The position numbers were made by a program, and so were the translations under genes. From contig CAXXUO010000002.1 of NCBI GenBank assembly GCA_963666485.2, forward strand, positions 288,001 to 352,000: DNA of 64,000 nt, given 5' to 3'. Numbering within the stretch: position 1 is the first letter of the stretch; every line of letters begins with the position of its first letter. The DNA is from Syntrophorhabdaceae bacterium (lineage in GTDB: Bacteria > Desulfobacterota > Syntrophorhabdia > Syntrophorhabdales > Syntrophorhabdaceae). This document shows, piece by piece, positions 12,006 through 48,626 of this stretch. A model generated the notes under the pieces. The model was not told the DNA's origin. It did no database searches and saw nothing but the letters and a program-made list of their open reading frames with translations.

Positions 12006-13616
12006 CTATGTTACCCACACACGGTCGAGGGAGATCCCGGAAATATCCACACGGACTGCCGGCATGTTTTTTTCAATGTCCCAGGGGATAAAATAGGTCA
12101 GCTCCTCGATCTCGTCCCTGAAACGGGAATGGAATTTTTTCTTGAGGTGAGCTTCCACATCTTTGATCGTCTTCATGATGCACCGGCTTATACCTGCGCT
12201 CTCATTGAGCGCCTTGAGATACGGCACGGTTTTCAGCTGGTCCAGGGCTTCCTGCGAATGAATTCCTTCCACCTGCCGCCTCATGGCGTATACGTTCCCT
12301 TTATCGCGGATGATCAGGATGATCTCATTTACCAGGACCTTTGCATTGTTGAAGTGCAATTCCCCCTGCGAAGCCCCGATCATTCTGAGCAGCACCCGCC
12401 GTCGCAGGAGATGGTCGAAAACGAGCGTCGACAATCTTTCAAAAATAAAACGCGTGCCCCGGTGATGGAACTCCCTGAGCCTCGTGGGATCGAACCCGAA
12501 ATCGATCAGGTCGGAGATCGTCGGTTTATCAGGCGGGTTGAGCCCTGTCCTCTTCATCCAGTTGTGGAGGTACGGGCGCTGATAGAACGGGAGGCTTTCA
12601 ATGTACAGGGTCGGGTTATCCTTCAGCGTACGCGGCAGGCTATGAAGGATTTCCTCGTTCCCCCACATTCCCCCGTCGTCTTTGCCAAATGTCCAGATCG
12701 AATACGGTTGGATCGGCAAACGTCTGACCGTGTCCGAAAACGATAATTGCTCGAGGGATTCACCGCCGGTATATCCTATCAACGTCTCGATGCGCCTGTG
12801 AAAACCGATGAGCCGCGTGGCAAGCCGCGTGAACATGAAATTCATAAGCGTGTTCGGCGTTCCGGACGCAAGGTCCTCGGCGAAAAGCCTCGACAACGAC
12901 CCGTACACGTTTTGAAATTCCGCTATGGTCCGTTTGACCATGTCCTCGTTGTCGTGCATCTCGATGACGGGCCTTTTCTTTTTGAGAGCGAAAAGGATGC
13001 GGACAAGGTCCGCCTTGAGGTCTCCGGCCGCGGCCGCCTCGGGAAAGAAGACCATGTAGTTTTCAAAGCCCTCCGATCCCCCGTCGCCGATAACATCCGC
13101 CAGCGGCCGCCACCCGAGGTTCGTGTATATCGAATATGTCGGGTCGTCGCCCGGGATGATATTGTCGAGCAATCCCAGGGCCCTCTTCTTTTTCAGGAAA
13201 TCCGCAAAGGCGGTGATGATCCTGCTGCCAAGCCCCAAACGCCGGAAAGCGGGCAAGATCTCGACGTAAACCAGGTAGTAGCACGGGACGGACCTTTTCA
13301 GGTAAAGCATGTTGAGATAGCCTAAGGTCTCATCGTTGTCCGTAGTGAGCTCGAGCGTACAGAAGCGCCTGCGTTGTTCCTTTGCCCGAAAGCGTTCCAC
13401 CTTTGCCCCGTGCACGGTATGGTCAATGAGCTCATGAAGGCCGGCAAATGCCGCGTAGGGTGACGGAGCGTCAAGGCGTTCCATCTGCTCGTCGAAGGTG
13501 AAATTTATCAGGGCCAGGGCATCCGCTGCCCGCATACCGGTCTTCTTTATCCTTGTCCCGATCTGGTCGATCTGTTCCGGCAATGTCATATGCGACCCTA
13601 AACGAAAACGGGCCAT
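12006..13616 (-). CDS. GNAT-domain protein with a large uncharacterised C-terminal region
   Basis: 536-aa ORF; acetyl-CoA-binding motif A VEILPAFRRLGLGSRII and IYTNLGW; I do not recognise the remainder. Confidence 0.75.
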   Translation of the reverse strand: MARFRLGSHMTLPEQIDQIGTRIKKTGMRAADALALINFTFDEQMERLDAPSPYAAFAGLHELIDHTVHGAKVERFRAKEQRRRFCTLELTTDNDETLGYLNMLYLKRSVPCYYLVYVEILPAFRRLGLGSRIITAFADFLKKKRALGLLDNIIPGDDPTYSIYTNLGWRPLADVIGDGGSEGFENYMVFFPEAAAAGDLKADLVRILFALKKKRPVIEMHDNEDMVKRTIAEFQNVYGSLSRLFAEDLASGTPNTLMNFMFTRLATRLIGFHRRIETLIGYTGGESLEQLSFSDTVRRLPIQPYSIWTFGKDDGGMWGNEEILHSLPRTLKDNPTLYIESLPFYQRPYLHNWMKRTGLNPPDKPTISDLIDFGFDPTRLREFHHRGTRFIFERLSTLVFDHLLRRRVLLRMIGASQGELHFNNAKVLVNEIILIIRDKGNVYAMRRQVEGIHSQEALDQLKTVPYLKALNESAGISRCIMKTIKDVEAHLKKKFHSRFRDEIEELTYFIPWDIEKNMPAVRVDISGISLDRVWVT

Positions 13617-20126: not shown

Positions 20127-20544
20127 GGCTTTCTCCTTATAATGCCGGATACGATCGAGCCTCTCGGACCTTTTCGTAACCTGATAATTTTTATGGTGCT
20201 CTATATTCTAGCTTTTATACGGACTCCCGCACTATAGAGAGATATCGATATTTGATGTAGATAAAAGCTGATAAAATTAGGATCTTTACGTCCCGTTGAA
20301 AAAAGATTGTTTCGCAGAAAAACAGAGAGACCCTGCCACCAGGCCGGATTCTAGTAAATTCCTGATTCGTCGATGCAGGATCGATCCCGCCCCGGAATAT
20401 CTGCCTGAACCTTAAATACGTGCCCATGGTTATGTGAATAAATAACCGACTACAGGTAATCGTTAGGTCCAACGACATCATTCTGTCCCCGTACCTGATT
20501 AAATGATTCCCATTTAGGATCATTTGATCGTGAGGAGGTTTTTC

Positions 20545-21837
20545 ATGAAAAAATTGGCTTTAACCCTGTTAACTCTCTTGCTTGCCATCCCCGCATTGAG
20601 CGACGCGGGCGGCGTATCGAGCAGGTACGACGTGACATTCGGCGGGTATGTAAAATATGATGTCGGTTATTCAACGCAGAATAATAATGCGGACCCGATA
20701 CTGGCCAGCCGGGAAAGCAGCGGTAGAATTAGATGGCTCGCGGATGACTATGGGAATACATTCCAGACCGCGGGCGAAACGCGCTTTAACTTCCTCATCA
20801 AGGGCCCCGACCTGGGCGGCGCCAAAACAAAGGCCTTTATCGAAGGCGATTTCCGGGGGGTGACAACAGGAAGTTCTTACGGCGGTTTCCAGTTAAGGCA
20901 CGCTTTCATGACCCTGAACTGGCCGACTGCGGAATTAATGCTCGGGCAGAACTGGCAGCAATGGGGCATGCCGTACTATAACGCGGCGATCGGCATCAAT
21001 GATTTCGCCCAGTATATTGGCGGGCACAGGACCCCCCAGGCGGCATTCCGTTATTTTTTTACAAAGGAGTTCAATGCAATGGCCGGTCTGACCGCGGCGA
21101 CGGAATGGTCGGGAGCCGACGGGATCAACGGGTACAATGACGGTTATGCTCGAAGCGGCTGGCCCGGGCTCATGGGCGAGATAGCGTACACGACGGACGG
21201 GTGCGGCAAGATCGGACCGAACAACCTGAAATTTGCCATTGGCGGGTACTTCGGGAAAGAGAAACAGATATGGCCCCCGTACAAATCAACGCGCAGCGAA
21301 AAAGGGTACCAGGACGATGAAGTCGATGCATGGCTCACCGCCTTCCGGTACAGCATTCCCCTCGTCCCGGAAAAACAGGGCAATAAGGCAATGTCCCTTC
21401 TCCTGAACGGCAATTTCTTTTACGGCCAGAACGTGGCAGGCAATAACTGGATGATGCCCGGCGGCCCGAGCAATGGCTCATACTGGCGTAATTTCCGCAC
21501 CATGGAAGCTGCTGCCCCGGTGGTATGGGGAGCTTTCGCCCAACTTTCATGGTGGCTGACGGATACGCTGTCGGTCAACGGAATGTACGGGTACCTGAAA
21601 TATAAATATAGCACCATAGCCGAGGACCTGATGCCTGACCATGTCAACATGATGCAGACCTGGGGCGTGAATCTCTTGTGGAACGCCAACGAATCGCTGC
21701 GGTTGGGCCTGCAGTGGATGACGATGTTCACGGGGTACAACAGGCCGTACTATTTCCCGGCAATAGGCTTCAAGGACTCCGGGGACCGCACGGGAAAGAT
21801 CGACCAGTACAGGCTGGCAGCGTGGTATTTCTTCTAA
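20545..21837 (+). CDS. outer-membrane porin (DcaP-like)
   Basis: Signal peptide MKKLALTLL...; FGGYVKYD, ETRFNF, AFIEGDF, LRHAF, LGQNW; terminal aromatic WYFF; GAGGAGG RBS. Confidence 0.8.
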   Translation: MKKLALTLLTLLLAIPALSDAGGVSSRYDVTFGGYVKYDVGYSTQNNNADPILASRESSGRIRWLADDYGNTFQTAGETRFNFLIKGPDLGGAKTKAFIEGDFRGVTTGSSYGGFQLRHAFMTLNWPTAELMLGQNWQQWGMPYYNAAIGINDFAQYIGGHRTPQAAFRYFFTKEFNAMAGLTAATEWSGADGINGYNDGYARSGWPGLMGEIAYTTDGCGKIGPNNLKFAIGGYFGKEKQIWPPYKSTRSEKGYQDDEVDAWLTAFRYSIPLVPEKQGNKAMSLLLNGNFFYGQNVAGNNWMMPGGPSNGSYWRNFRTMEAAAPVVWGAFAQLSWWLTDTLSVNGMYGYLKYKYSTIAEDLMPDHVNMMQTWGVNLLWNANESLRLGLQWMTMFTGYNRPYYFPAIGFKDSGDRTGKIDQYRLAAWYFF

Positions 21838-21854
21838 GACATTTCCCGGCTCAC

Positions 21855-21884
21855 ATGGGTCCCTTATAGTCAGGGGCCCATTTA
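21855..21884 (+). terminator. probable intrinsic terminator after the porin
   Basis: Hairpin ATGGGTCCCT-TATAGTC-AGGGGCCCAT followed by a short T run. Confidence 0.5.
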
Positions 21885-21953
21885 ACCCTGCCGGCCGACA
21901 ATCGTTCGCTTGTTTTCCCGGGCGGCATATACTACAATTCTAGCATTCACGGG

Positions 21954-23666
21954 ATGACACGAGAAGGTTCAACGAAGAGTAAAGCCAGAACAGCACAGGT
22001 CTTAAGGCTCCTGCACGCATTGCTTTCAGATATCGCCGGGCCGGAGATCAGGCGGCTTGTCACCGCCGCCCTTTTCATTTGTCTCTCCACTTTTGGTTCC
22101 ATCGCCGGGCCTTTCCTCATAAAAGAGATCATAGATGTCGCGCTTCCGGCGAGGGATGTCCGCCTCCTCGGCATTTACTCGGTACTCCTGCTCCTGACGA
22201 ATGCGGTTGCGCTCGTTTTCTGGTCCATCCATTCCCGTTTCGCCATACGCTCATCCGAAAGGATCTTTCTGAAATTCCGCGAAAAGCTTGTTTCCGCCGT
22301 CTTGCGGAAGAGGCTCGATTTCTTCTCCCGGTACGGGTCGGGGGATATCCTTACGAGAGTTAATAACGACCTCGACTTTATCAGCCTTTTTCTCCATCAG
22401 ACGGTGCTGCGCTGCCTGGCGTTTTCCGTTTTCTCGATCGTCCTCCTGGCCGGGCTCATTATCTGGAACTGGCGGCTGGGCCTCACATTCCTGCTGACCC
22501 TTCCCTTTCTCCAGTTCTACGCCTGGAAAACATACGAGCCCGCGGCGAAACATTTCAGGTTATCCAAGGAGAAACTTTCATCGCAGAGCGAGACCCTTCT
22601 CGATATCCTCGCCGGCGTCCCTGAACTGAGGTTCTACCAGCAGGGCCGGGAGGCGGTCCGGCGCTTCCGGCGCAACGCGGAGGCATATACCGAACAAAAT
22701 ATCCGGACGCTCATGATCAGTGATCATTTTTCGAACGGGCTCGATTTTCTCGGGGTACTGGTGCGGCTCCTGCCGTTCATCGTCGGCGGCTATCTTATCT
22801 GCCTCGGCTCATCCGACATTACGATAGGCATGCTCGTTGCCTATTTTGTCATATTCTTCCGCCTCGCGCTCCAGATATTCGCCATTTTTCAAGGCATCCT
22901 TGCATCCGCACAGGCGCTGCCCTCATTGCAGCGCCTGAAAGAACTCCTGGATTTTCCCGAAGATACCGAGCCCGAAGAGTTCGGCATCGATGAGGTCCCT
23001 GACGCGACCGATATTGAATTTAACGATGTCTCGTTCGCTTATCCGAACGGTCATCCCGTTTTTACAGGCCTCAACCTCCGTGTCAGCCAGGGAGAAAAGG
23101 TGGCCATCATGGGCCAGAGTGGATCCGGCAAAAGCACGCTCGCGCAGCTGATCACGCGGTTCCTTGCCCCGAGTTCCGGCCATGTGCTTTTCGGAGGCAA
23201 GGATGTCAGATCGTACCCCCTGGCGTTTTACCTGAGCTTTTTCGCCTATGTCCGGCAGGAGGCCCATTTATTCAAGGTCAGTTTCAAGGACAATATCGCG
23301 ATGGGGTGGTACGGGGTCCCCCTGGACCGCATCAAGGAAGCGGCGTCCCTTGTCCGCATGAACGACGTAATCGAGCGATTGCCGATGCACTATGACACCG
23401 TGTATGCCGAGGACGGCACGAATCTTTCCGGCGGGCAGAAACAAAGGATCGCTCTCGCGCGGGCGCTTATCCGGGACCCCCATATCCTGGTCCTCGACGA
23501 ATTCACCTCCGGGCTCGACCCCCAGGTGGAAAAAGAGATACTTGACGACATGTTCGCATTGTTCGAGAAACAGACGATCATATGCATAACCCATAAACAA
23601 TCGGTCGCCGACAGGTTTCAGAGGACCATTACGATCGGCCAGGCCGTGCACTCTCCCATTTCGTGA
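21954..23666 (+). CDS. ABC exporter, fused permease/ATP-binding protein
   Basis: N-terminal TM domain (SGDILTRVNNDL); Walker A GQSGSGKS, signature LSGGQKQRIALAR, Walker B ILVLDEFTS, H-loop ITHK. Confidence 0.93.
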   Translation: MTREGSTKSKARTAQVLRLLHALLSDIAGPEIRRLVTAALFICLSTFGSIAGPFLIKEIIDVALPARDVRLLGIYSVLLLLTNAVALVFWSIHSRFAIRSSERIFLKFREKLVSAVLRKRLDFFSRYGSGDILTRVNNDLDFISLFLHQTVLRCLAFSVFSIVLLAGLIIWNWRLGLTFLLTLPFLQFYAWKTYEPAAKHFRLSKEKLSSQSETLLDILAGVPELRFYQQGREAVRRFRRNAEAYTEQNIRTLMISDHFSNGLDFLGVLVRLLPFIVGGYLICLGSSDITIGMLVAYFVIFFRLALQIFAIFQGILASAQALPSLQRLKELLDFPEDTEPEEFGIDEVPDATDIEFNDVSFAYPNGHPVFTGLNLRVSQGEKVAIMGQSGSGKSTLAQLITRFLAPSSGHVLFGGKDVRSYPLAFYLSFFAYVRQEAHLFKVSFKDNIAMGWYGVPLDRIKEAASLVRMNDVIERLPMHYDTVYAEDGTNLSGGQKQRIALARALIRDPHILVLDEFTSGLDPQVEKEILDDMFALFEKQTIICITHKQSVADRFQRTITIGQAVHSPIS

Positions 23667-23713
23667 GATAATGGGACGCAATAATTCATGAGTTCATTGA
23701 GGAGGAATATTAC

Positions 23714-24700
23714 ATGATCAAATTGACGCCGGATGAGGTCAGGGAACGTTTCGGGAAATTCTATTATGAATCCTTCCTCACAATAGTGGATAGTGAAAAA
23801 AGTAAGATCGAGATAGTCGAAACCTTCGGCAATTATCCCGGCAGTGCGGAATGGACTGCGATAAACAGGTGCCGGGCAGGAGGAATAATCGAGTCCTATG
23901 AAATATACGGGCAGACATCGTATATCAGGGCCAGGCTGGGCGAATCTCCCGTTCATTTCGGGCCCGCGGATGCCGAGCAGGGCGGACAGGCGCTGCAGGG
24001 GGCGCTGGTCGAAGGTGACCGGGTCAGGACAAAATGGATCGGCATCGCAGGCATGAGCCTGAGCACATGCGGTTCCCTGACGCAGGCCCCGGGGGTCATC
24101 GAAGCGTGGTACCCCTCCGAAGACGACCTCAATGTCGGGGGCAATAAGACAGGGCGTGTCGAGATCATCTCTCCGGCGTACGAAAAAATAAGCTTCGGTA
24201 TTGACGATACGGACGACCCGAGCGGCGGGGCAACATTCGCGCTTATAGTGAACGCGCGGCTCGAGGCGGGCAAGATCCCCGGGGTACACCCTCTTATGGT
24301 CAGGTTTGCCCAGTTGCTGCCGAAGTGCCCTTATAAAACGACGAACTGTACGTCGTCATTTATGTCCTTCGCGGTCAGGCCGGGTACAGCCCGGAAGGTC
24401 ATCGATGTCATCGTGGACATGGTCAGGTCTCAATCACGCTCCGATGATGCCGCAATCGCCGTGCTGAGCGGTATAGGTGTGCCCGGGAACCTGGTTGCCT
24501 TCGGGTGGGATGCGAAAAGGCGCATGATCTCGCTCGACGAGGCATATGCGTTGGATGGCAAAGAAGGGGTTGATCTGATCCCCGTGGGACCCGGCAAAAA
24601 GGGGCTGATCGGCGCATTGGCTGCACTTGGCCTCTCCGAAGAAAAATATGCCGCCGCCCTCGAAAATGATAAAGGTTTTGACCTTATCAGAAGATGGTAG
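23714..24700 (+). CDS. methanogenesis marker protein 11 (Mmp11) homologue, TiaS-N-like GIDDTD domain
   Basis: N-terminal region ..IEIVE..EW..NR.RAGG, GGQAL..VEGD.V.T.W.GIAG, QAPGV; then SFGIDDTD..GGATF, QL.P.CP.KTTNC.S and GLIGALAALG. Recognised from family memory, not from a search. Confidence 0.75.
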   Translation: MIKLTPDEVRERFGKFYYESFLTIVDSEKSKIEIVETFGNYPGSAEWTAINRCRAGGIIESYEIYGQTSYIRARLGESPVHFGPADAEQGGQALQGALVEGDRVRTKWIGIAGMSLSTCGSLTQAPGVIEAWYPSEDDLNVGGNKTGRVEIISPAYEKISFGIDDTDDPSGGATFALIVNARLEAGKIPGVHPLMVRFAQLLPKCPYKTTNCTSSFMSFAVRPGTARKVIDVIVDMVRSQSRSDDAAIAVLSGIGVPGNLVAFGWDAKRRMISLDEAYALDGKEGVDLIPVGPGKKGLIGALAALGLSEEKYAAALENDKGFDLIRRW

Positions 24701-24725
24701 AAAACGACCGCTTTAGGACTGTTCC

Positions 24726-26231
24726 GTGGAACCTTTCGCTGACAATTCAACGCTGATCGTACCGAACGATCTTTTTTATATGCCCCTCATCCAGGCTTTT
24801 ATATCTGAGGTTGCAAACAGGATGGGATTCAGCAAGCGTGACATGTCCATGATGATGGTCGCTGTCGAAGAAGCGGTCGTGAACGTGGTCAGGCATGCCT
24901 TTGAGCCCGGTGAGAAAACAACCTTTCAGGTCATTGTTGCACCGGGCAATATGAACTTAACGGTCATTATCAAAGACAAGGGACTGCCGTATTCACCTGG
25001 CATCGTGCCCGATTATAACCCCCCGTCCGATATTTATGACGCAGCCAATGCCGGGCTTGGCTTATATCTTATAAGGAAGGGCGTTGACGAAATATTTTTC
25101 AATAACCTGGGCCGGGAAGGCAAAGAACTGCACCTTGTCAAACATGTTCCGTACCGCAGTGTCCAGGAGATACACACCGAAACCGAACTTGAACGTTTCC
25201 CTGAACCTGTCGTAACAGGACCGGCCAAACAAAAGTCCTTTTCCATCCGCCCGATAGAACCGTCCGAGGTTTACGACGTGTCAAGGCTGTTTTACCGGAC
25301 GTACGGGTATACATACGGCGTCGATACGATCTATTACCCTGAAAAACTCGCCCAAAGCCACGCCGATGGAACGATAACATCCGTGGTGACTGTCGGGGAA
25401 GATGGCCGCCTCGTCGGGCATGCCGCACTTGTGCGCGATGGCAGGGAAGACAGGATAGCCGAGCTGGCAATGGCTGTTGTCGAGCCCTCGTACAGGGGGC
25501 ACGGATGTCAAAACCTGATGACCCTGCGCCTCGTTGAGGAAGCGAAGAAGGAAGGCCTCGCCGGGATATACAGCAAGGCCGTCACCAATCACATGTACGC
25601 ACAGAAAGCCGGGGAGAAAGCGGGATTCAAACGGTGTGCGCTTGTCGCCGGTGTGATCCCCGCAGACAGGATATATAAGGGAATGGACGCTGCCTTAACC
25701 CAGCGCGGATCGGTGGTCTTTGGGTACAAGGCGGTTGGCGACCCGGGGAATATCATGGTGTTTGCACCGTCAAAACACAGCGCGATCATCCAGAAGACGT
25801 ACGGGGCATTGGGGATAGACCGGGTCTTCGCGGAAGGGCCCCGGAAAGAGCAGGAGGCCGATGAGGAGCCAGGGGACGTCAGGGTCGCCGTTATTCCCGG
25901 ATTCAACCGTGGGACAATTGAGGTCAAGAAATACGGAAAGCATACAGCGGTGCAGGTGCACACCATCCTCAAGATGCTTTGTTACCAGAAGGTCGACCAG
26001 ATAACGCTTTATCTCAATTCCCACGATCCGGCCATATGTGGTCTGATCGACACATTTGAAAACATGGGGTTCTTCTACGCAGGCATCCTGCCCTTTTCGC
26101 ACGTGGGAGACGCGCTGCTGCTCCAATATCTCAACAATGCGCCCATCGATTACGACAAGGTTTACGTGGCATGCGAGATGGGCCGCGAGATCCTGGAATA
26201 TGTGAGATCATGCGATCCTAACAACCGGTAG
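24726..26231 (+). CDS. fusion of RsbW/SpoIIAB-like anti-sigma kinase (HATPase_c) and GNAT acetyltransferase domains
   Basis: N box VEEAVVNVVRHAF, G1 IKDKG, G2 GLGLYLI; then GRLVGHAAL, AVVEPSYRGHG, AVTNH.YAQK, GFFYAGILP; GTG start. Confidence 0.85.
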   Translation: MEPFADNSTLIVPNDLFYMPLIQAFISEVANRMGFSKRDMSMMMVAVEEAVVNVVRHAFEPGEKTTFQVIVAPGNMNLTVIIKDKGLPYSPGIVPDYNPPSDIYDAANAGLGLYLIRKGVDEIFFNNLGREGKELHLVKHVPYRSVQEIHTETELERFPEPVVTGPAKQKSFSIRPIEPSEVYDVSRLFYRTYGYTYGVDTIYYPEKLAQSHADGTITSVVTVGEDGRLVGHAALVRDGREDRIAELAMAVVEPSYRGHGCQNLMTLRLVEEAKKEGLAGIYSKAVTNHMYAQKAGEKAGFKRCALVAGVIPADRIYKGMDAALTQRGSVVFGYKAVGDPGNIMVFAPSKHSAIIQKTYGALGIDRVFAEGPRKEQEADEEPGDVRVAVIPGFNRGTIEVKKYGKHTAVQVHTILKMLCYQKVDQITLYLNSHDPAICGLIDTFENMGFFYAGILPFSHVGDALLLQYLNNAPIDYDKVYVACEMGREILEYVRSCDPNNR

Positions 26232-26232
26232 A

Positions 26233-26332
26233 CCACACACACCCCTCGTCATCCACACACACCCCTCGTCATCCACACACCACCGTCGTCATCCACACAC
26301 CACCGTCGTCATCCACACACCACCGTCGTCAT
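26233..26332. repeat. five tandem 20-bp repeats
   Basis: 2 x CCACACACACCCCTCGTCAT then 3 x CCACACACCACCGTCGTCAT, with no spacers. Confidence 0.95.
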
Positions 26333-26473
26333 CCCGGTGCTTGACACCGGGATCCAGTGTCTTTGTCCTTTCTTTTTTATTTCCGGTATAAGCGATCTCA
26401 GACTGTGCAATAACCACATGCAAGACGGATATGAGAGAAATCCTGGATCCCGGTGTCAAGCACCGGGATGACG
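26327..26473. repeat. REP/MITE-like palindromic element (31-bp perfect inverted repeats)
   Basis: CGTCATCCCGGTGCTTGACACCGGGATCCAG (26327-26357) and its exact reverse complement (26443-26473); each arm has an internal hairpin ATCCCGGTG-CTTGA-CACCGGGAT. Confidence 0.85.
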
Positions 26474-27901
26474 TGAATTGGTAGAAGCCCTTCTATTTAT
26501 TTTCCCGAGCAGCGAAAAAATACATGCGACAAAACAGCACAATGCGCCCGCCAGGTATGCGTAACGGAAGCCCGGCAATGCGGATTGTGCGGTCAGTTTT
26601 CCGACGAGATCGCTCCCGCCGGACACACCCGAGGAAAAGATCGCCTCTAAAACGGTGACCCCGAGCACCATCCCGAGATTGTTGACCGTGTTGAACAGTC
26701 CCGAGGACACCCCGCGTTTATCCGGGGGCGCGTATGTCATGATCTGGTTATTGTTTGGTGAAAAAAACAGGACAAAGGAAAGCGCAAGCCAGACGAGATA
26801 TACGAATACCGTGGCATAGCCTCCCCGGGAAAGCGATAACGCAAATGTCAGGACGCAGGCCGTGGCGGACAGTGTGGCAATGCTGCATAACAGTGCGGGG
26901 TTTACCCGGTCTGAAAGCCGGCCGGCCGCAGGAGACAGAGCAACATAAATGACCGAATAGGCTATGAGGACCATTCCCGTCTGCTGCGCGTTGAGCCCCA
27001 TTACCACGTCGAGATAAAATGGCAGAAGGATGCCGTTCCCGGATATGAGCATATAGGCGAAGAATGTCGCTATAAGGGCGAATGTAAAATGAGGACGGGA
27101 AAAAAGGCGTATGTCGAGAAGCGGGTCATCGTGCCGCAGTTCCCACCAGGCAAAGAACCCGAGCGATATGAGGGCCAACCCCAAACAACCGACAGTCTCC
27201 GGCGACAACCCCCGGGTATTGAGATGATTGATACCCCATATGAAGAAGGCAAGTCCCGCGAAACTTACTGCGGCACCCGTAAAATCAAACGGCTGGCCCT
27301 CCCCTCGAACCGTCTTGCCGCCACGGTCATCAGGCCCCGGAATGAATCTGCTGCCCGCTGCAATTGCTGCTATACCGACAGGGACGTTGATAAAGAATGC
27401 CCAGTTCCATGAAAGGTATCCCGTCACGATCCCGCCGACGGGAGCGCCTGTCGCCACGCCGAGGGCCGATGCGGTCGAGGTGATGCCGAACGCCCATCCC
27501 GTCCTTTCGGGCGGCAAAAGCTGGGAGATTATCGCAAAGCTGACGGCAAGAAGCATCGAGGCGCCGATCCCCTGGATAACGCGGCACAGGATAAGCATCG
27601 TGAGATCATGAGACAGCCCGCACAAGAGCGAGCCCACCGTGAAAACCGCGTACCCTGCGATGAACACGCGTTTCAATCCTATCCTGTCGCCGAGCTTTCC
27701 AAAAAGCAGCAGCGTTGTCGTGATAACGAGAAGATAGGATGAGAGTACCTGGGAAGCATCTGACGATGACATACCGAGCGAACGGGAGATCGTCGGCAGG
27801 GAAACGTTGACCATGTAATTATTGAGGCGCACAAGGAATGAGCTGAACGCCACGCTCATCACGATCAGAAAATAGGCATACGTACGGTTTTGGGCGGCCA
27901 A
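26456..27901 (-). CDS. MFS exporter, DHA2 (EmrB/QacA) family
   Basis: VNVSLPTI, motif A GKLGDRIGLKR, RVIQGIGA, WAFFINVPVG, FDFTGA, PLLDIRLF; TTG start. Confidence 0.92.
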   Translation of the reverse strand: MAAQNRTYAYFLIVMSVAFSSFLVRLNNYMVNVSLPTISRSLGMSSSDASQVLSSYLLVITTTLLLFGKLGDRIGLKRVFIAGYAVFTVGSLLCGLSHDLTMLILCRVIQGIGASMLLAVSFAIISQLLPPERTGWAFGITSTASALGVATGAPVGGIVTGYLSWNWAFFINVPVGIAAIAAGSRFIPGPDDRGGKTVRGEGQPFDFTGAAVSFAGLAFFIWGINHLNTRGLSPETVGCLGLALISLGFFAWWELRHDDPLLDIRLFSRPHFTFALIATFFAYMLISGNGILLPFYLDVVMGLNAQQTGMVLIAYSVIYVALSPAAGRLSDRVNPALLCSIATLSATACVLTFALSLSRGGYATVFVYLVWLALSFVLFFSPNNNQIMTYAPPDKRGVSSGLFNTVNNLGMVLGVTVLEAIFSSGVSGGSDLVGKLTAQSALPGFRYAYLAGALCCFVACIFSLLGKINRRASTNSRHPGA

Positions 27902-27911
27902 TGTGAATTAT

Positions 27912-29054
27912 TTATAATCTTTGGCTGTCCATCGCAAGCTTTTTCTCGTCGCCCTTTAGTTCCCGGGGACAATGTGCGGCGCGGTGCGGGTCATGATCGA
28001 GGACATAGGACTTGATGGCGGCAAGTGTCTCCGATGCCACGTTAATATCATCATAGTCGACATGGGCGTTATGGACATATTGAAGGACGAGAGCGTCCCC
28101 GACCGGGGAATGCGGCATGATACCCGAAATAAAGAACCCCAGGCGTTCGAATTCCCGGCAGGCCGTTGCAGTATGGGGTGATGCCAGGGGAAGCTCCATC
28201 GAAATGTATCGGATATCCCTCGCCCGCATATCACGCCACAGTTCCTCGACGCAGCGGTAAATACCCACACCATACCGATCGATCGTGACCTGCGCCACAT
28301 CCCTGGCGACCATGCGCGCCTTCAGTAAGGCACGCCCTGTTAAAGGGGGGCGATCCGCCGGCGCAAGGCTTACCGGGGAGCGCTTCAATCCTGCCTGTCT
28401 GTACAGCATCTCGATAAATTTACGATGGTGTACAGGGGGATATATCGTTATGTCCCGTTGATCCTTGAGCGGCAGGTAGCCTATTGCCAGGGATTGTCTT
28501 CTCCCGGGGGCCGGATGTTTTCCGTCGTATATCCTGCGGTCCGGCATTATGCCCACCTGGAGACCGATGCGCTTGAAACCGAACTTCTGGCCCGTCTTTT
28601 GTGCAAATACATGGTGCGTCACACCCTGGCTCAGGATCCCCTCAAGACCTCGCGCCCGCGCCTCCTGTATGACCGCGCCCAGCATCCTGGATTCACACCC
28701 CATATTGCGAAAATCTCGATGGACCACAGACAATGCGGCCCGCCCAAAATCAGCCTCTTTATTGTCCTTTATCAGTGCACAGTGGCCGACCACCCGGCCG
28801 TCAGGGGCAATGGCAACGATCGACGTCAACTCCCCTCTCGATATTCTTCCCGCCAGGATATCCGCACTGTAAACCCCGGGGTTTGCGTCTCCAAAGACGC
28901 TTTCAAAAGTGCGGCCATAGACGCTTTCAAATAGTGCCGGTATTTGCTGCACATCCCCGGGTCCCGCTTTTCGTATTTCGATCAAGGACGTGCATTCGTG
29001 CCGGGCCGATGAATCATGCACGACCCTGCTTGCGGACGAAACGGACGATATCAT
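27912..29054 (-). CDS. GNAT-domain protein, paralogue of the C-terminal part of 24726-26231
   Basis: GRVVGHCAL, VVHRDFRNMG, GVTHHVFAQK, GFFISGIMPHSPVGDALVLQY align with the fusion protein. Confidence 0.85.
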   Translation of the reverse strand: MISSVSSASRVVHDSSARHECTSLIEIRKAGPGDVQQIPALFESVYGRTFESVFGDANPGVYSADILAGRISRGELTSIVAIAPDGRVVGHCALIKDNKEADFGRAALSVVHRDFRNMGCESRMLGAVIQEARARGLEGILSQGVTHHVFAQKTGQKFGFKRIGLQVGIMPDRRIYDGKHPAPGRRQSLAIGYLPLKDQRDITIYPPVHHRKFIEMLYRQAGLKRSPVSLAPADRPPLTGRALLKARMVARDVAQVTIDRYGVGIYRCVEELWRDMRARDIRYISMELPLASPHTATACREFERLGFFISGIMPHSPVGDALVLQYVHNAHVDYDDINVASETLAAIKSYVLDHDPHRAAHCPRELKGDEKKLAMDSQRL

Positions 29055-29098
29055 GACCCTTTTCCTTCCCCTTTCACGTCAGTTAACATGGTGCCCCT

Positions 29099-29572
29099 TC
29101 AATCCCTCGCAATGTCCGCCATACCGGCGAGGTCCTCCGGGATCGGCAAATACTTGATCAGATGGAGCTCTTTCCCGTCGGGATGGTTCCTCACCATCAC
29201 CTGGTCAAAACTGCTTCGCATGATCTGGAAACCCAGGCCCGACTCGGGGTAACTGTCAATATTCCTCGCAGACATATCGTCCGGGTACAGTGCAGTTTCG
29301 TGTTCGAACGGTTTGCCGTCATCCCGGACAACGATCGAGAACAGGGAGTCCGTAATACGGAATATGATCTCATACATAGCTTTTTCCGTCGTGCCGTATG
29401 AATGCGTGATAACGTTAAGAATGGCCTCTTCGAGCCCGAGGCACACCTTGGCCCTGTCGACGGCGCCGAGGCGCGCTTTTTTGCCCAACTCGTCCGTAAA
29501 TGCCTTCGAAGCCATAAGCGAATAGAGATTGTTCGGAAGTACCAGTTTCGAACTGTAACCCAGACCCTTCAT
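29099..29572 (-). CDS. RsbW-like anti-sigma factor kinase (HATPase_c), paralogue of the N-terminal part of 24726-26231
   Basis: LEEAILNVITHSY, VRDDGKPF, SGLGFQIMR, GKELHLIK; AAAGGAGG RBS. Confidence 0.88.
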   Translation of the reverse strand: MKGLGYSSKLVLPNNLYSLMASKAFTDELGKKARLGAVDRAKVCLGLEEAILNVITHSYGTTEKAMYEIIFRITDSLFSIVVRDDGKPFEHETALYPDDMSARNIDSYPESGLGFQIMRSSFDQVMVRNHPDGKELHLIKYLPIPEDLAGMADIARD

Positions 29573-29805
29573 GCACGACCTCCTTTTTTCGGAACTATCG
29601 ATCTATGCGAACAGACAGATGTGCCCGGTGGACAGCCGACAGAAAGGCGAGGGAGAGAAATTCCATCGTCTGCGGGATTTGGTTTCAGGCATGATGGGGG
29701 GTAATTAGCGGCGCAGGTCTGCGCCAGCGGTATACTTCTTTGCTGCAAAGGCTTCCTTACCCGTCGATCCAGAAATGCTCTCCGCTCGCCCAGTAATGAC
29801 TTCAT
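29569..29805 (-). CDS. possible small protein (78 aa)
   Basis: Its stop overlaps the kinase ATG (ATGA); N-terminal ERRAFLDRR; otherwise unrecognised. Confidence 0.25.
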   Translation of the reverse strand: MKSLLGERRAFLDRRVRKPLQQRSIPLAQTCAANYPPSCLKPNPADDGISLPRLSVGCPPGTSVCSHRSIVPKKGGRA

Positions 29806-29936
29806 AACCCTTAGGGTATCAGTCGGACCGCATTTCGTCTGTCGTCCGGTGTGAACGAATGGTGTCGTCTAATGATTATTTCCCGGTACGGGAAAAAGAG
29901 TGTACATTGTGTTATGGGCCCGCGTGACCGTGCGGA

Positions 29937-30590
29937 TCAATCGGGCATTATCAGGCCATGCTTGATCGAAAATTTTATGAGTTCGGAATAATCTTTCAGC
30001 ATGAGCTTCGTCATGATGCGATGGCGGTATGTCGCAACGGTACTCGGCGCGAGAAACAAGATATCGGCCACATCCCTGTTTGATTTCCCTTCCGAAATGA
30101 GCTGCGTTATCTCTCTTTCCCGGCGCGTCAGTTTTTCGAAATAGTCGCCTTTTTCTTCCCTGTCACGGTACCTGATATAATCGTCTATGACCGTACCGCT
30201 GACGGAATCGCAGATATAACGTTTCCCGGAATATACCGCATTTATGGCCCGGATGAGCTCCTCACCCGCAAGCTCTTTCAAGAGATATGCCGATGCGCCC
30301 GCCTTGAATGCGCGGAATATGTGTTCCTGCGAGGCATTCATCGTCAATATGATGATCTTTGTCTCTTTGTGTTCCTCGCGAATCGCATCCGTAGCATCGA
30401 TGCCGTTCATCTCAGGCATGAAAATATCGAGGATGACGATGTCGGGTTTTTTCTTGAGGACCTCCCTCACCGCCTCCCGCCCGTTGGAACTCTCGCCTAC
30501 CACCGTGATGTTTCTTTCATTTTCCAGGAGCAGCCTGATCCCCTGTCTGAACATTATGTGGTCATCAGCCAGAAAAACATTAATACTCAT
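29937..30590 (-). CDS. NarL/FixJ-family response regulator (REC + LuxR HTH)
   Basis: LADDH.MFRQG, ILDIFMPEMNGI, AYLLK, LTRREREI, STVATYRHRIM.KL; start set to MSINVF. Confidence 0.95.
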   Translation of the reverse strand: MSINVFLADDHIMFRQGIRLLLENERNITVVGESSNGREAVREVLKKKPDIVILDIFMPEMNGIDATDAIREEHKETKIIILTMNASQEHIFRAFKAGASAYLLKELAGEELIRAINAVYSGKRYICDSVSGTVIDDYIRYRDREEKGDYFEKLTRREREITQLISEGKSNRDVADILFLAPSTVATYRHRIMTKLMLKDYSELIKFSIKHGLIMPD

Positions 30591-31716
30591 AAAGGCACCT
30601 CGACGAAGATGTGTGTTCCCTTTCCCAGGTCCGATGTGATCGTGCATGAGCCGCCGATCACTATCGACCGCTCTCTCATGGACAAAAGTCCCATGCCTTT
30701 TTGTCCGTTTCCCTTGCGTGATCGGGTCTTCTTGTATCCTATGCCGTTATCCCGGATGGCCAGAAGAAGCGAATTATCTTTCAGGTGGACATCGATCTCG
30801 ACCGCTGTTGCCCGGGCATGTTTGGACACGTTTGTCAGGGCTTCCCTGGCTATGAGAAAAAGCGTGCTTTCAATATGGGCCTCCGGCCTTGGATGCAGAT
30901 CTTTTCCCCTGACGTCCACCTCTATGCCTGTTTTTTCCGAAAATTGACGGGAATACCAGCGCAGGGCGGCGACCAGTCCATAGTCGTCGAGCACGGGAAG
31001 CCTCAATTCCGTAAGGATATTTCTTATCTTGGCCGTCGTGTCCTTGAGAAGCATTGCGGAGTCGCTGATTATTTTTTTCGTCGATACGAGAGATTCCTTC
31101 GACATAACAGATTGCAAGAGATTGAGATTGAGGCCGATCGTGCTCAAGTTTTGCCCGATCTGGTCATGGATCTCACGGGAGATACGTTTTTTTTTGCGCC
31201 TCTTCGGCCATTGCCAGACGACGGATAAGAGATTTCAACTCTTCGTAGACCTGGTTCAATTCCAGGGTCCTGGCCTTGACCCGCATCTCCAATTCGTCGC
31301 GTGCGGCTTATCAGCTCGTTTTCCAATTTCTTCTCGATCGTTATGTCAATGCCTACCGAAAGCACCTGGTGGATCTTGCCCTCACCGTCCACCAGTCCTC
31401 TGTTTGTCCAGGCAATAACAACGCGTTCCCCCGACTTCAGGATATTTTCATTGATGTTCTTGATATACCGGTCGGGGTCCTTGCAAACGTCTTGCATGAC
31501 ACGAGATAATTTTTGTCCCGAACTATCGGTCACGGGGACGATCGTACCGAGAATGTTCAATCCAATGAGTTCGTCAAGCTTAAAACCGAAAAATTCTGAC
31601 CCGTACCTGTTGATATACTGTATTGTCCCGGCAGGCGACCACAGGAGTATGATACTGTTTGCCATCTCGGCCAAATCTTCATAAAGCTGCGGCATTTTAT
31701 TCATAATCCGGCTCAC
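30587..31716 (-). pseudogene. PAS-domain HisKA_3 sensor histidine kinase, two frameshifts
   Basis: The PAS part, the coiled coil (ARDELEMRVKARTLEL...AEEAQKK) and the kinase (RISREIHDQIGQNL...REALTNVSKHA...IRDNGIG...GMGLLSMRER) lie in three frames; extra bases near 31305 and in the A9 run at 31187-31195. Confidence 0.85.
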
Positions 31717-31888
31717 CCCACTGTAAGTAATGCACTATGGATTAATTATGTCAAAATAATTTTGATCATATCAAGGCCTGTTTCCTCTTTTCAACGATCA
31801 TTGATGCCGTTTGTCAACATCGGACGACAGACGCGCCCTATCCTGCCGATTAAACTTGAGGTCAAAAAAAGAGTATAAGGATGACGCT

Positions 31889-33640
31889 ATGGGCCTAGGC
31901 AGCGACCTGTTCAGAAAAAAATCGGTTTCATCCGTTTTGTCATCAGATTACGAGGGTACAGCCGGAAACGGCGAGGCGAGTCTTGTCAGGGCGCTTGGCG
32001 TACGGGACCTGACCGCCCTCGGGATCGCAGCGATCATTGGCGCCGGGATCTTTTCGGCCATAGGAAATGCGGCGTACTGGGGTGGTCCGGCAATAATCTT
32101 TCTCTTCATTTTTACAGCCTTTGCCTGCGGGTGTACCGCCATGTGCTACGCTCAGTTCGCTTCCATTATCCCGATATCGGGGTCCGCGTATACCTATGCC
32201 TATGTTGTCTTCGGTGAACTGGCCGCGTGGATCATGGGGTGGGACCTGCTTATGGAATATGCGATCGGCAATATAGCCGTGGCGATCTCCTGGAGCAACT
32301 ATTTTGTCGAACTTCTGGCCGGCTACAATATTGCCATCCCGGATTTCCTTGTCATCGACTACAGGTCAGCATTAAGCGGCGCCGAGGTCATTCAGGGGCA
32401 TCTCGCCTCCGGCCATACCATGGACACCATCGCGGGATTGCCGGGGGCAACGCTCCTTATGCGGGCTTTTTCAGCGTGGCAGGGTGCGCCCGTCGTGTTC
32501 GGGTACAGGATAATTTTCAATCTGCCGGCACTTATAATCATACTCATGGTCACCGTGCTCATTTATATCGGCATACAGGAATCGAAGCGCGTGTCCAACG
32601 CGATGGTCCTCGTAAAGGTCCTCACGATAATCCTCGTCATCGTAGCGGGTTCTTTTTATATACGGCCTGCGAACTGGATGCCCTTTGCGCCAAACGGCCT
32701 CGATGGCGTCATGAAAGGGGTTTCGGGGATCTTCTTCGCATATATAGGCTTCGATGCCCTGTCGACGACTGCGGAGGAGTGCAGGGACCCGCAACGGGAC
32801 CTCCCCCGGGCAATGTTCGGCGCATTAGGGGTATGCACGGTGCTCTACGTACTGCTTGTCCTCGTTCTTACCGGGATGGTCCATTACAGCAAACTCCAGG
32901 TCGGCGACCCTCTCGCGTTTGCCTTTGGCAAACTCGGCGCCAACGTGCAATGGCTTATGGGGATCATAGCCGCAAGCGCGGTCGTCGCGATGGCATCGGT
33001 TCTTCTCGTGTTCATGCTGGGGCAGCCCCGCATATGGATGGCCATGAGCCGTGACGGGCTTCTCCCCCCGGCATTCTCAGCGATACACCGGAAGTTCAGG
33101 ACGCCCTGGCTGGCTACCATCATGACGGGCCTGTGCGTGGGGGTCCCGTCTTTGTTCATGAACCTCAACGAGGTCACAGACCTGTGCAGTATCGGCACCC
33201 TTTTTGCCTTCAGTGTCGTGTGTGCGGGCACCCTTATATTCGACATTACCGGTCACAAAGGGACAGGCAAGTTCCATGTGCCCTATATTAACTCACGGTA
33301 TGTATTCACCCCCGCCCTGGTCATCGTCGTCGCGGTCTATTTCTCCTTATGCCCGCAAAAACTGATCCTTTTTCATGGCATCCAGCGCATCGGGATCGCG
33401 AGCCCGGTTATCATCTTTGCGTTTTTCAGCCTTGTCCTCTGCTATTTTTCCGTGACGCGCCAGCTCTCCCTTATACCTCTCATAGGGCTCGAAAGCTGTA
33501 TGTACCTTATGACCGAGCTTACCATGAGTTCCTGGCTCAGATTTACGATCTGGATGGGCTTTGGACTGGCGATCTATTTCTTTTACAGCCGGAACAGGAG
33601 CAAGCTCCGCACTGTCATGAAGGGTCCGCTTCCCGAATAG
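31889..33640 (+). CDS. APC-family amino acid permease (CAT/YfnA-like)
   Basis: LFRKK, GIAAIIGAGIF, SGSAYTY, FFAYIGFDA.ST.AEE..DPQRDLP, QPRI..AMSRDGLLP; start set to MGLGS. Confidence 0.93.
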   Translation: MGLGSDLFRKKSVSSVLSSDYEGTAGNGEASLVRALGVRDLTALGIAAIIGAGIFSAIGNAAYWGGPAIIFLFIFTAFACGCTAMCYAQFASIIPISGSAYTYAYVVFGELAAWIMGWDLLMEYAIGNIAVAISWSNYFVELLAGYNIAIPDFLVIDYRSALSGAEVIQGHLASGHTMDTIAGLPGATLLMRAFSAWQGAPVVFGYRIIFNLPALIIILMVTVLIYIGIQESKRVSNAMVLVKVLTIILVIVAGSFYIRPANWMPFAPNGLDGVMKGVSGIFFAYIGFDALSTTAEECRDPQRDLPRAMFGALGVCTVLYVLLVLVLTGMVHYSKLQVGDPLAFAFGKLGANVQWLMGIIAASAVVAMASVLLVFMLGQPRIWMAMSRDGLLPPAFSAIHRKFRTPWLATIMTGLCVGVPSLFMNLNEVTDLCSIGTLFAFSVVCAGTLIFDITGHKGTGKFHVPYINSRYVFTPALVIVVAVYFSLCPQKLILFHGIQRIGIASPVIIFAFFSLVLCYFSVTRQLSLIPLIGLESCMYLMTELTMSSWLRFTIWMGFGLAIYFFYSRNRSKLRTVMKGPLPE

Positions 33641-33708: not shown

Positions 33709-34875
33709 ATGCCCATTCAAACGGCGAAAACCATTGACTCAGGCGAATTGCCGGCTGCGAAAAAAGTCCAGCGGATGTCGTACCTCGACAATCTCCGGCT
33801 CCTTTTTACCCTGCTCGTCATCGTCCACCATATATGCCTCACCTACACGGGGGAAAGAGGCTGGTATTGTTACGAGATTATCAATGACCCGTTTACGAAC
33901 CTCGTCATGGTCCTTCTCATGACCACAGGCAGGAATTGGGTCCTGCAATTTTTCTTTCTCCTGTCGGGATATTTCACGCCGGGGTCCCTCGACAGGAAAG
34001 GCCTCCAGGTATACATCAAGGAACGCCTTATCCATATCGGAATACCTCTTGCCATTTTCTGGTTTTTGATCCGGCCGATACTCTATTACATTACGAATAA
34101 GAACAAATTGCCGTATTCATTTCTCGAAGGCCTTTTTACCCTGAAGCTTGCTTCACCGGGACAAGCATGGTTCCTGGAGGTACTTCTCATTTTTTCGGTC
34201 ATCTATGGCCTGCTGTGGTATGTACGCAAACCCCGGACGGGCCCGGAAAGGAAGGAAATGCCGTTCCCTTCGACCGGCGCCATTTTCCTGTTTATATGTG
34301 GCCTTTCGATCATAACGTTCATCATCCGTATGTTTCTGCCGGGAGATATGCAGGTATTGTACTTGCGCCTGGGCAATTACGCGGATTACATTGCATTCTT
34401 CGCGCTGGGAATAGTGGGGTACCGCAACAAATGGCTCGATAAGCTATCCGACCGGACAGGGCTTCAATGGACCCTCATAACGGCAGCCGCGTTTATCGTG
34501 TACTGTGCGTTCGTCACAAACTCATGGGCATCACACGAAAGCCTGGCCTATTTGCGCGGGGGATCATCCGTCAAGACATTTATTACGACCTGGCTTGGGA
34601 CGCACATCGCGATCGGCATCTCTATCAGTTTTACGTATCTTTTCAGGAAATTCGTGAATTTTAAGTCAGCGCTCCTCAAGGCAATGGCAGCCGAGGCGTA
34701 TCCCGTGTTTATCTTTCATGCACCCGTCGTCATCGCCGTAACATATGCCGTTCATGACCTCGCGTCGTGGCCGTTTTTGAAATTCAGTTCAAATTTCGTG
34801 CTATCGACTGCCATATGCTTTCTCGTCTGCCGATACGTCGTACGTAAGATACCGTATGTAAATAAGGTAGTCTGA
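33709..34875 (+). CDS. acyltransferase family 3 (OpgC/OafA-like) membrane protein
   Basis: YLDNLR...LVIVHH, FFLLSGYF, ERL..IGIP, WFL..LL, Y.VFIFH.PV. Confidence 0.88.
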   Translation: MPIQTAKTIDSGELPAAKKVQRMSYLDNLRLLFTLLVIVHHICLTYTGERGWYCYEIINDPFTNLVMVLLMTTGRNWVLQFFFLLSGYFTPGSLDRKGLQVYIKERLIHIGIPLAIFWFLIRPILYYITNKNKLPYSFLEGLFTLKLASPGQAWFLEVLLIFSVIYGLLWYVRKPRTGPERKEMPFPSTGAIFLFICGLSIITFIIRMFLPGDMQVLYLRLGNYADYIAFFALGIVGYRNKWLDKLSDRTGLQWTLITAAAFIVYCAFVTNSWASHESLAYLRGGSSVKTFITTWLGTHIAIGISISFTYLFRKFVNFKSALLKAMAAEAYPVFIFHAPVVIAVTYAVHDLASWPFLKFSSNFVLSTAICFLVCRYVVRKIPYVNKVV

Positions 34876-47796: not shown

Positions 47797-48626
47797 TTTT
47801 TTGCAGGCAGGGTTTTTTTCGTTTTTGGCAAACCCGCCAATGCCGACGCACAGCATATCGCGTTATGGTACGTTCTGCCCGCCCGGGATGTGTCCACGTA
47901 AACAAGGTCGGCCCCGACAGCCGGGCCGCCCATTCCGGTCCCCTCCCCCACGAGACACAAAGAGCGGTAGATCAGGTTGCCGCTGATGCCGTCAGGGGCA
48001 AGGATGAAATTGTATTTTTCGATAGCTTCCTCGAAAAGGATATACATGCACGTCGCGTTGTACCCTTTCGCCGTGAGGATATCAGCGGCCTTCTCCGCGC
48101 TGCGTATGCTCCGGTCCGTTACCGCCGACCTGCCGATATCCCCTTTTCTCCCTCCGCCGAGGACCGCGATATTCTCATCGATCCCGAGCCGTCTCATGAG
48201 GTCCGCGCCAAGCTGGCCGAGCCTCACTTTTTCCCTGACCCCCCAGGCGTCATCGATACCGACCGGGGCGAAAAAGAACGGGGTAACATGCGGTGGCTGC
48301 AGTATCGCAAGGCGAAGGAGCTTCCTGATACCGTACTGTTCCTTGAGGGCCTTCATCAAAGGGTTTATGTCAAGGGACCCCCGGACGATGCCTGCCACTT
48401 CCCCTCTTTTGACCATCCCGACGAGTTCTGCCTCGGGGGATTGAGATACGACGTTTTCGATCCCGCCGGCCAGTTTTTCCCGGCTCACGATAACGACACG
48501 GGCGTACCCTAACTCTTGTGCTTTCTCGGCGCTCTCCAGGACCTTCTTTTCGTACCCTTTTTCTGCACCAATGGCGATCCGGGCCCGGGACATCCGTGCC
48601 CGGTCGATGATCAGATCGGTTATCAT
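47793..48626 (-). CDS. mtxX: MtxX / methanogenesis marker protein 4 homologue (phosphate acetyl/butyryltransferase fold)
   Basis: PE..LV..V..G.V...VRGSL, FFFAPVGIDD, AVLGGGR.GD.GRS, IL.EEAI, APDGISGNLIYRSL..VG.G..MGGP, YVDTSRA. Recognised from family memory, not from a search. Confidence 0.85.
   Translation of the reverse strand: MITDLIIDRARMSRARIAIGAEKGYEKKVLESAEKAQELGYARVVIVSREKLAGGIENVVSQSPEAELVGMVKRGEVAGIVRGSLDINPLMKALKEQYGIRKLLRLAILQPPHVTPFFFAPVGIDDAWGVREKVRLGQLGADLMRRLGIDENIAVLGGGRKGDIGRSAVTDRSIRSAEKAADILTAKGYNATCMYILFEEAIEKYNFILAPDGISGNLIYRSLCLVGEGTGMGGPAVGADLVYVDTSRAGRTYHNAICCASALAGLPKTKKTLPAKK

Follow-up and report, generated by a model that had tools for sequence, protein, structure and literature searches.

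Probable two-module organization of a bacterial Mmp11 locus in a Syntrophorhabdaceae genome

Introduction

The tRNA enzyme TiaS uses its kinase domain to phosphorylate a carbonyl oxygen. Coenzyme B is, to our knowledge, needed by all methanogens, so that the enzymes making it matter for methane control; we know of no assigned enzymes beyond 2-oxosuberate in its synthesis, the late pathway reportedly comprising, as described by White in 1994, an ATP-dependent step that activates 7-mercaptoheptanoate, its linkage to threonine as an amide, and a phosphorylation. 2-Oxosuberate itself is made for coenzyme B by AksA, AksD, AksE and AksF (PMC3087415). For the Mmp11/DUF1743 group (TIGR03280; m17), the supplement of Adam et al. 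2022 (PMC9635834) predicts only an ATPase and calls the role indeterminate. MtxX (Mmp4; TIGR03270, PDB 9NZY) has the PTA/PlsX fold, closest to PTA and PTB, with a cleft whose ligand is expected to be both hydrophobic and acidic, and is described without known activity in its 2026 structure paper (PMC12978539). Here we analyse a stretch of 64,000 nucleotides (the window) from a Syntrophorhabdaceae genome (GCA_963666485.2, contig CAXXUO010000002.1, positions 288,001 to 352,000), in which a paralogue of Mmp11, Mmp11b, is encoded between an ATP-binding cassette (ABC) exporter and a protein that fuses an ATP-binding domain to a GNAT domain, facing a second operon with a split copy of that fusion and a DHA2 efflux pump of the major facilitator superfamily (MFS). 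The six genes very probably represent two separate modules rather than one conserved system. Our best explanation, to which we give a probability of about 0.4, is that Mmp11b, MtxX and the ABC exporter (module 2), of Methanocella-related origin, make and export a coenzyme-B-type acyl-threonine, and that the fusion and the DHA2 pump (module 1) acetylate and export a small molecule.

A first-pass annotation, made from the letters of this stretch, had already given the six open reading frames (ORFs), their strands, their family labels and the four intergenic gaps (47 and 25 bp in the plus-strand operon, 44 and 10 bp in the minus-strand operon) as we find them. Three points go beyond it, namely the paralogy of the split minus-strand pair with the fusion, the mtxX gene elsewhere in the window (Table 1), and STAS and SpoIIE matches in the rest of the genome.

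Mmp11b travels with MtxX and an ABC exporter

Judged by named relatives, the genome of the window belongs with Syntrophorhabdaceae-like syntrophs. Counts within the family refer to 69 genomes (genomes carry G labels, G000 being that of the window, and contigs carry L labels). Full-length Mmp11b is present in four of them, G000, G010, G022 (2 copies) and G051, a figure that omits a fragment in G059 and weak, kinase-domain-only matches in G025 and G032. The clade of the ABC gene (E up to 1e-120, with 20 candidates scored per genome) was found in exactly those four genomes, and MtxX in 5/69, that is, in the same four and in G026, where mtxX and the ABC gene share a 1.6-kb contig that ends before mmp11. 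Among 301 genomes of the class of G071, MtxX occurs in three, all Syntrophaceae, and each time adjoins Mmp11b and the ABC gene. The two genes mmp11b and mtxX are adjacent, with mtxX directly downstream, in 5 of 5 bacterial loci; one of the G022 mmp11 copies has the ABC gene adjoining and no mtxX beside it. An organic-acid symporter gene follows mtxX in G000, G010 and G022. The constant partners of Mmp11b are MtxX and the ABC exporter, and the low dN (0.06-0.17) relative to dS (0.9 to saturated) indicates that both Mmp11b and MtxX are under purifying selection. The exporter passes the cut-off for none of the named ABC exporter families (CydC/D, MsbA, HlyB, peptidase-containing), the best 25 families listed all lying far below theirs. 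A metagenome scan yielded 4 loci only, 1 of them of bacterial type.

On contig L012 of G051, the mmp11b-mtxX-ABC cluster has an IS1380 transposase and further insertions at its borders. In G022 (L009, L130 and L131), many genes of the island (those for the ABC exporter, the permeases, a Rossmann-motif protein described below, the kinase and the fusion) are frameshifted and mmp11b and mtxX are intact; the frameshifts represent either decay or assembly error.

Anatomy of Mmp11b and MtxX

The model of Mmp11b (328 aa) was predicted with a pLDDT of 94, and its residues 156-317 match the kinase domain of TiaS in PDB 3AMT (Z 22.1, root-mean-square deviation (rmsd) 1.7, 154 residues aligned). The TiaS-type motifs DDTD (164-167) and KTTN (208-211) are in place, and the kinase-domain profile TCKD (PF22641) matches weakly. 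Relatives of Mmp11b carry the label of the TiaS tRNA enzyme at NCBI, an assignment that we reject, since the kinase domain alone matches: the TiaS profile NF040849 covers only its positions 3-159 of 422 in Mmp11b (48.8 bits compared with 600), and TiaS (PDB 3AMT, 3U02) has ~420 residues with tRNA and agmatine domains that Mmp11b does not have. tRNA is an unlikely substrate because an unrelated N-terminal domain of 155 residues replaces the rest of TiaS. For this N-terminal domain no clear fold match emerged within the whole model (best Z <7), and Atlas matches stayed below 0.8.

TIGR03280 covers several archaeal paralogues, and the window gene falls into a second clade, 'b'. With canonical Mmp11 it shares the full length, the two-domain build and the DDTD and KTxNC motifs; it differs by its score below the family cut-off (Table 1), its bacterial host, its link to an ABC gene and an N-R-x-R motif where most canonical members have H-Y. 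Residues E46, W47, N51, R52, R54, Q92 and W108 are invariant in 52/52 b-type rows, archaeal and bacterial alike, and positions 51-52 read H-Y in 23/25 of the other rows. The two Mmp11 paralogues differ in the motifs of their N-terminal domains, which suggests an anion site that is not the same in both.

The second partner, MtxX, matches PDB 9NZY with an E of 2.4e-30 and scores 185-186 bits here against the TIGR03270 cut-off of 190, its orthologues in G022, G026, G051 and G071-G073 reaching 190-211. The residues R82, R105, R160, R166, N217 and R221 are invariant and D245-R248 (DTSR) is kept in at least 90% of 33 rows, the correspondence to the numbering of PMC12978539 being derived from a constant offset. 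The window protein, which retains the DTSR motif and the invariant arginines, differs from described MtxX in being bacterial and in having mmp11b as its partner gene, an arrangement shared with Methanocella-type genomes and absent from the synteny section of PMC12978539.

Probable archaeal origin

In the tree of Mmp11b, all bacterial rows fall into a single clade (SH-aLRT 100) whose sister group is of Methanocella type (99), and the bacterial MtxX clade (100) is likewise sister to Methanocella-type rows (94); a grouping of the bacteria with the Methanomicrobiales 'b' sequences was rejected (p-AU 0.001). The Mmp11b trees are quick and midpoint-rooted, with SH-aLRT support only, one thinned by identity and one built from 29 chosen rows. 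The order mmp11b-mtxX is shared by 4/4 Methanocella-type loci and by 10 further archaeal genomes (5 mapped). Clade 'b' is found across several archaeal orders, so that the simplest reading is a transfer out of archaea into bacteria, from a donor that was related to the sampled Methanocellales and need not have been one of them. The Syntrophorhabdus proteins OPY02695 and OPY02696 appear in the m17 and MtxX trees, respectively, in the supplement of PMC9635834, where the relevant passages do not comment on them. Our literature search, with subscription journals mostly outside its coverage, returned no paper on the bacterial Mmp11b-MtxX pair or on the paralogue split.

Methanomassiliicoccales-type Mmp11 genes, together with their neighbours, also stand on contigs L079, L084, L086 and L088, which are assigned to Bacteroides, Ruminococcus, Dialister and Prevotella and are probably misbinned; the short contig L013 of G059, with an Mmp11 fragment, an IOR-alpha-like gene and an Elp3 gene, is probably archaeal contamination.

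The coenzyme B clue and its alternatives

The clue to a function comes from archaeal gene context. Downstream of mmp11b, Methanomicrobiales carry canonical mmp11, genes for a radical-SAM and an IOR-alpha-like protein, and aksA/D/E/F-like genes, so that the archaeal relatives of mmp11b head an aks-like cluster. Of the 47 loci (of 58) that have at least 5 kb downstream, 45 have canonical mmp11 and the IOR-alpha-like, aksA-like and aksD-like genes behind mmp11b, and the other two belong to Methanomicrobium. M. mobile, listed as requiring coenzyme B in a table of PMC10658910, keeps 'b' and MtxX, and searches for canonical Mmp11 and for an AksA-like synthase in its genome found neither. Three Methanomassiliicoccales-type genomes show only 'b' and MtxX, and the bacterium of the window has the same complement: an AksA-sized synthase, canonical Mmp11, the radical-SAM gene of the cluster and ftr were not found in its genome by the queries used, the matches to AksA queries being frames of 527-614 aa (27-38% identity), the size of LeuA or CimA and not of the 380-aa form. 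At most the late steps of the coenzyme B pathway would then be present. On L228 (G129), an MSMEG_0568-family radical-SAM gene, mmp11 and mtxX stand in a row downstream of a homoserine-dehydrogenase-like gene; on L241 (G106), mcrB is immediately preceded by an mmp11 gene; and a weak match to the XcbA family of the coenzyme M pathway occurs within the Methanomicrobiales aks-like cluster (L063, L229).

A small-molecule kinase together with an acyl-phosphate transferase would fit the late steps of coenzyme B synthesis. In the reading that we prefer, Mmp11b, with the fold and motifs of a TiaS-type ATP site, would first transfer phosphate to a small anion; the acceptor would be the carboxylate group of 7-mercaptoheptanoate or of a similar acid, or else the hydroxyl group of threonine. 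MtxX, which has a phosphotransacylase fold, would then pass the acyl moiety of the acyl-phosphate on to an amine. The co-distributed transporters would complete the scheme: since the genome yielded no AksA-type synthase, the acid would enter through the symporter adjoining mtxX, and the product would leave through the ABC protein. A bolder version, in which the syntroph took the last two coenzyme B enzymes from a Methanocella-like archaeon, added an importer and an ABC exporter, and now feeds coenzyme B or a precursor to methanogens that cannot make it, seems to us unlikely; if true, it would assign functions to Mmp11b and MtxX and would constitute a cross-domain supply with dedicated genes. 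The bacterial enzyme pair with its transporters, the paralogue split and the loss in M. mobile yield a short list of testable substrates and strains, and open to direct test what two methanogen marker proteins do and how coenzyme B synthesis ends.

Several observations weigh against the coenzyme B reading. The genomes counted are kin and not independent of one another. The aks-like genes score under the methanogen-specific AksF and HacA cut-offs and could be leucine genes. The loss in M. mobile is ambiguous because this organism also needs branched-chain fatty acids, and if it needs finished coenzyme B, a salvage step or an unrelated role would fit equally well. Furthermore, mmp11b adjoins ftr in 45/58 Methanomicrobiales loci and in G241 and G251, and uppS in 11/12 Methanomassiliicoccales-type loci, so that canonical mmp11 may be the only one of the two paralogues with a link to aks; in 0/58 Methanomicrobiales loci are mmp11b and mtxX neighbours. 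We know of no use for coenzyme B in a bacterium without methyl-CoM reductase. Finally, coenzyme B genes are stated to be present in Methanomassiliicoccales in PMC4153887, a statement with which the two Methanomassiliicoccales-type draft genomes, where no AksA-sized protein was found, are at odds. A role of clade 'b' in methanofuran metabolism, which the ftr adjacency might suggest, is weakened, because Methanomassiliicoccales-type genomes have only 'b', and the relevant passages of PMC4153887 describe them as without the CO2-reduction pathway.

Mmp11b and MtxX might instead be an acid kinase and a phosphotransacylase acting on another carboxylic acid, either detoxifying an imported acid by conjugation and export or conserving ATP from an acyl-phosphate, with no link to coenzyme B in the bacterium. 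The coupling of the organic-acid symporter to mtxX in three genomes, the amino-acid permeases in the island, the proximity of the MtxX fold to PTA/PTB (PMC12978539) and the failure to find AksA, canonical Mmp11 or ftr in this genome are all consistent with such a role. The invariance of the seven Mmp11b residues across archaeal and bacterial rows argues for an unchanged substrate, and we regard this alternative as rather doubtful. Distinctly less probable still is that coenzyme B, complete or in its dephospho form, is imported by an inward-directed ABC transporter, with Mmp11b and MtxX repairing it or degrading it, for use with the bacterium's own Hdr complex or as a source of carbon and sulfur. 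Exporter-fold importers do exist (IrtAB, YbtPQ), HdrA and HdrB homologues are encoded in this genome, and its gene complement is the same as that of the coenzyme-B-requiring M. mobile, but the Mmp11b/MtxX pair is present in only 4-5/69 family genomes and the ABC protein passes the cut-off for no named importer family.

The HATPase-GNAT fusion and the DHA2 pump

The fusion is distributed very differently from Mmp11b: it is present in 38/69 family genomes (E up to 1e-30), and this DHA2 pump lies at most 1.5 kb away in 26/29 family loci (best match per genome), mostly without Mmp11 and often accompanied by an acyltransferase-3 gene. Across the phylum of G071 the fusion was found in 27/301 genomes, with varied neighbours. 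The fusion and the pump likely constitute a family-wide unit that acetylates and exports a small molecule. Among the neighbours recorded, a ThiF-family gene and a carboxyltransferase gene follow the fusion on contig L147 of G052 and on L263, and on L270 and L271 the fusion comes after an AMP-binding enzyme. The first-pass annotation had paired each kinase/acetyltransferase set with an exporter; the fusion is indeed tied to one, the DHA2 pump, and the ABC exporter belongs with Mmp11b and MtxX.

The same annotation had taken all six genes for a single modify-and-export or sensing unit, with GNAT activity gated by the ATP-binding domain and a further chemical step supplied by Mmp11. The 25-bp gap between mmp11b and the fusion gene here and the ATP-binding motifs conserved in 94 fusion proteins speak for it, as does the distribution of the split HATPase, found in 4/69 genomes of which 3 have Mmp11b, with contig L149 holding both. 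Moreover, the split pair lies ~10-15 kb from mmp11b in G010, in G022 and on L149, which counts against a clean separation into two modules, leaves room for a local link and leads us to infer an island at genus level. The neighbourhood comparison nevertheless gave no conserved six-gene co-occurrence, the frequencies of the fusion and Mmp11b in the family being far apart. Among the bacterial loci mapped, mmp11b stands directly upstream of the fusion gene in this genome only, and neither the fusion nor the split pair occurs in the flanks (up to 8 kb) of any of five bacterial Mmp11 loci drawn from the genome_contigs collection. G071 has Mmp11, MtxX and the ABC gene, and no such GNAT was found there by the queries used; the GNAT copies of G051 are >1 megabase from mmp11b; and in G019 the split pair is present and Mmp11 was not found. 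A single unit is, in our estimate, quite improbable, and the two-module organization is preferred.

Structure prediction, which had been proposed as a check, bore out both parts of the fusion itself (pLDDT 85). Residues 1-144 are predicted to adopt the RsbW/SpoIIAB fold (PDB 6M36, 1L0O; Z 15.9, rmsd 3.3, 135 aligned, and Z 15.3, rmsd 1.5, 103 aligned) with the ATP-site motifs (N-box, D/E84-x-G, GxG) conserved in 94 fusion homologues. The GNAT part (Z 14.0, rmsd 4.3, 156 aligned) exceeds the PF00583 cut-off and keeps the acyl-CoA motif A, R-G-x-G (R257 in 92/94, G258 in 88/94 and G260 in 85/94 homologues); H232, H289, Q293, R327 and H351 are invariant across all 94. A reading of the predicted secondary structure suggests that the C-terminal domain is GNAT-like. 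Compared with RsbW and SpoIIAB, which share the fold and ATP-binding motifs, the domain differs in being fused to or paired with GNAT, in lying beside an efflux pump and in scoring below the family cut-off (62.6 compared with 145). No paper on HATPase-GNAT fusions was found in our search, again with subscription journals mostly outside its coverage, and this widespread, apparently uncharacterised architecture is of moderate interest alone.

The minus-strand pair aligns end to end with the fusion, the split HATPase being 27% identical over 144 residues and the split GNAT 34% over 336, so that one architecture is present twice, fused in the first operon and split in the second. The four genomes with a stand-alone HATPase (G000, G010, G019 and G022) belong to one genus, where it is encoded behind a PAS kinase and a NarL-type regulator, and the split copy with this sensor/regulator pair is a genus-level addition. 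Three further paralogues in this genome match the GNAT part only, one of them near another DHA2 pump and an acyltransferase-3 gene. Separately, a GNAT domain is matched weakly in a protein of 536 aa (12006-13616, minus strand) that is without paralogues in this genome.

As the first-pass annotation had noted for the window, no STAS, PP2C or sigma-factor gene was found, here among the 44 window ORFs scanned, two NarL-type regulators giving weak Sigma70_r4_2 matches only. It had also allowed for a cognate partner elsewhere, and the genome does contain 8 STAS and 4 SpoIIE-type phosphatase matches; its two complete STAS/PP2C modules, however, carry their own HATPase. No STAS gene was found beside the fusion in 20 mapped regions, assessed from ORF lists and similarity to the window proteins only, and STAS occurs within 1.5 kb of the fusion in 2/30 phylum loci, each with a separate HATPase (50/98 neighbour ORFs scanned). 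That the HATPase domains, given their fold and conserved motifs, are ordinary partner-switching serine kinases acting on those STAS proteins, with module 1 as a signalling output and Mmp11b as a passenger, is the least probable of the alternatives, as the stand-alone HATPase is nearer to the fusion domains than to the kinases of the STAS/PP2C modules and the co-distribution of Mmp11b, MtxX and the ABC gene would be left unexplained.

Locus layout and other features

Table 1. Features of the locus, with positions in the window
Feature	Position	Strand	Remarks
Type IV ABC transporter, exporter fold (module 2)	21954-23666	+	PF00664+PF00005; Walker A, LSGGQ and Walker B present
Mmp11 paralogue 'b' (module 2)	23714-24700	+	TIGR03280 163 bits, cut-off 255.8
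Fusion of RsbW/SpoIIAB-fold ATP-binding domain, GNAT and C-terminal alpha/beta domain (module 1)	24726-26231	+	HATPase_c_2+GNAT
20-nt tandem repeat and REP-like palindromic doublet between the operons	26233-26470		125 blastn pieces across the genome
DHA2 (EmrB-type) MFS efflux pump (module 1)	26456-27901	-	TIGR00711 239.7, over cut-off 230.2
GNAT and C-terminal domain, split paralogue of fusion residues 174-500	27912-29054	-	
Stand-alone HATPase_c_2, split paralogue of fusion residues 1-142	29099-29572	-	
NarL-type regulator and PAS sensor kinase	29937-31716	-	Precede the split pair in every mapped locus
Acyltransferase-3 membrane protein	33709-34875	+	Island member; frequent neighbour of the fusion-MFS pair
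Organic-acid:H+ symporter-like MFS protein	46594-47856	-	Overlaps mtxX; TIGR00895 260.9, under cut-off
MtxX/Mmp4, PTA/PlsX fold (module 2)	47793-48626	-	23 kb from mmp11b here

Short-read contigs span 20500-26295 and 26444-32000, each in one piece and with identical letters, and are separated by the multicopy repeat within the tandem repeat and palindromic doublet that lie between the operons. The short-read runs (X1-X3) represent one sample, which may be the source of the assembly itself. With each operon spanned by such a contig, misassembly of the locus is not supported. The PAS and histidine-kinase ORFs (30587-31716, minus strand) are one gene, encoding in relatives a single protein of 375-387 aa; it is displayed as two ORFs because the window has two extra bases (31187 and 31308) relative to the short-read contigs. 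A promoter scan of the window was at chance (12 found, 11.1 expected), and terminator matches were mildly over chance (20, 12.7 expected).

A protein of 571 aa with an N-terminal Rossmann motif (38857-40572, plus strand) has no Pfam or NCBIfam family match; copies 52-55% identical occur in many family genomes, a 73% copy lies in the G010 island and a broken copy in G022. As a fixed part of module 2 it was rejected, full-length copies being present in many genomes without Mmp11b. Two porin-like proteins (20524-21837, plus strand, and 62988-63908, minus strand) have no Pfam match and four paralogues in the genome. Divergent from mtxX, the segment 50344-54632 (plus strand) encodes an unclassified membrane protein of 480 aa, an HpaB-family (4-hydroxybutyryl-CoA dehydratase-like) protein and a CoA-transferase.

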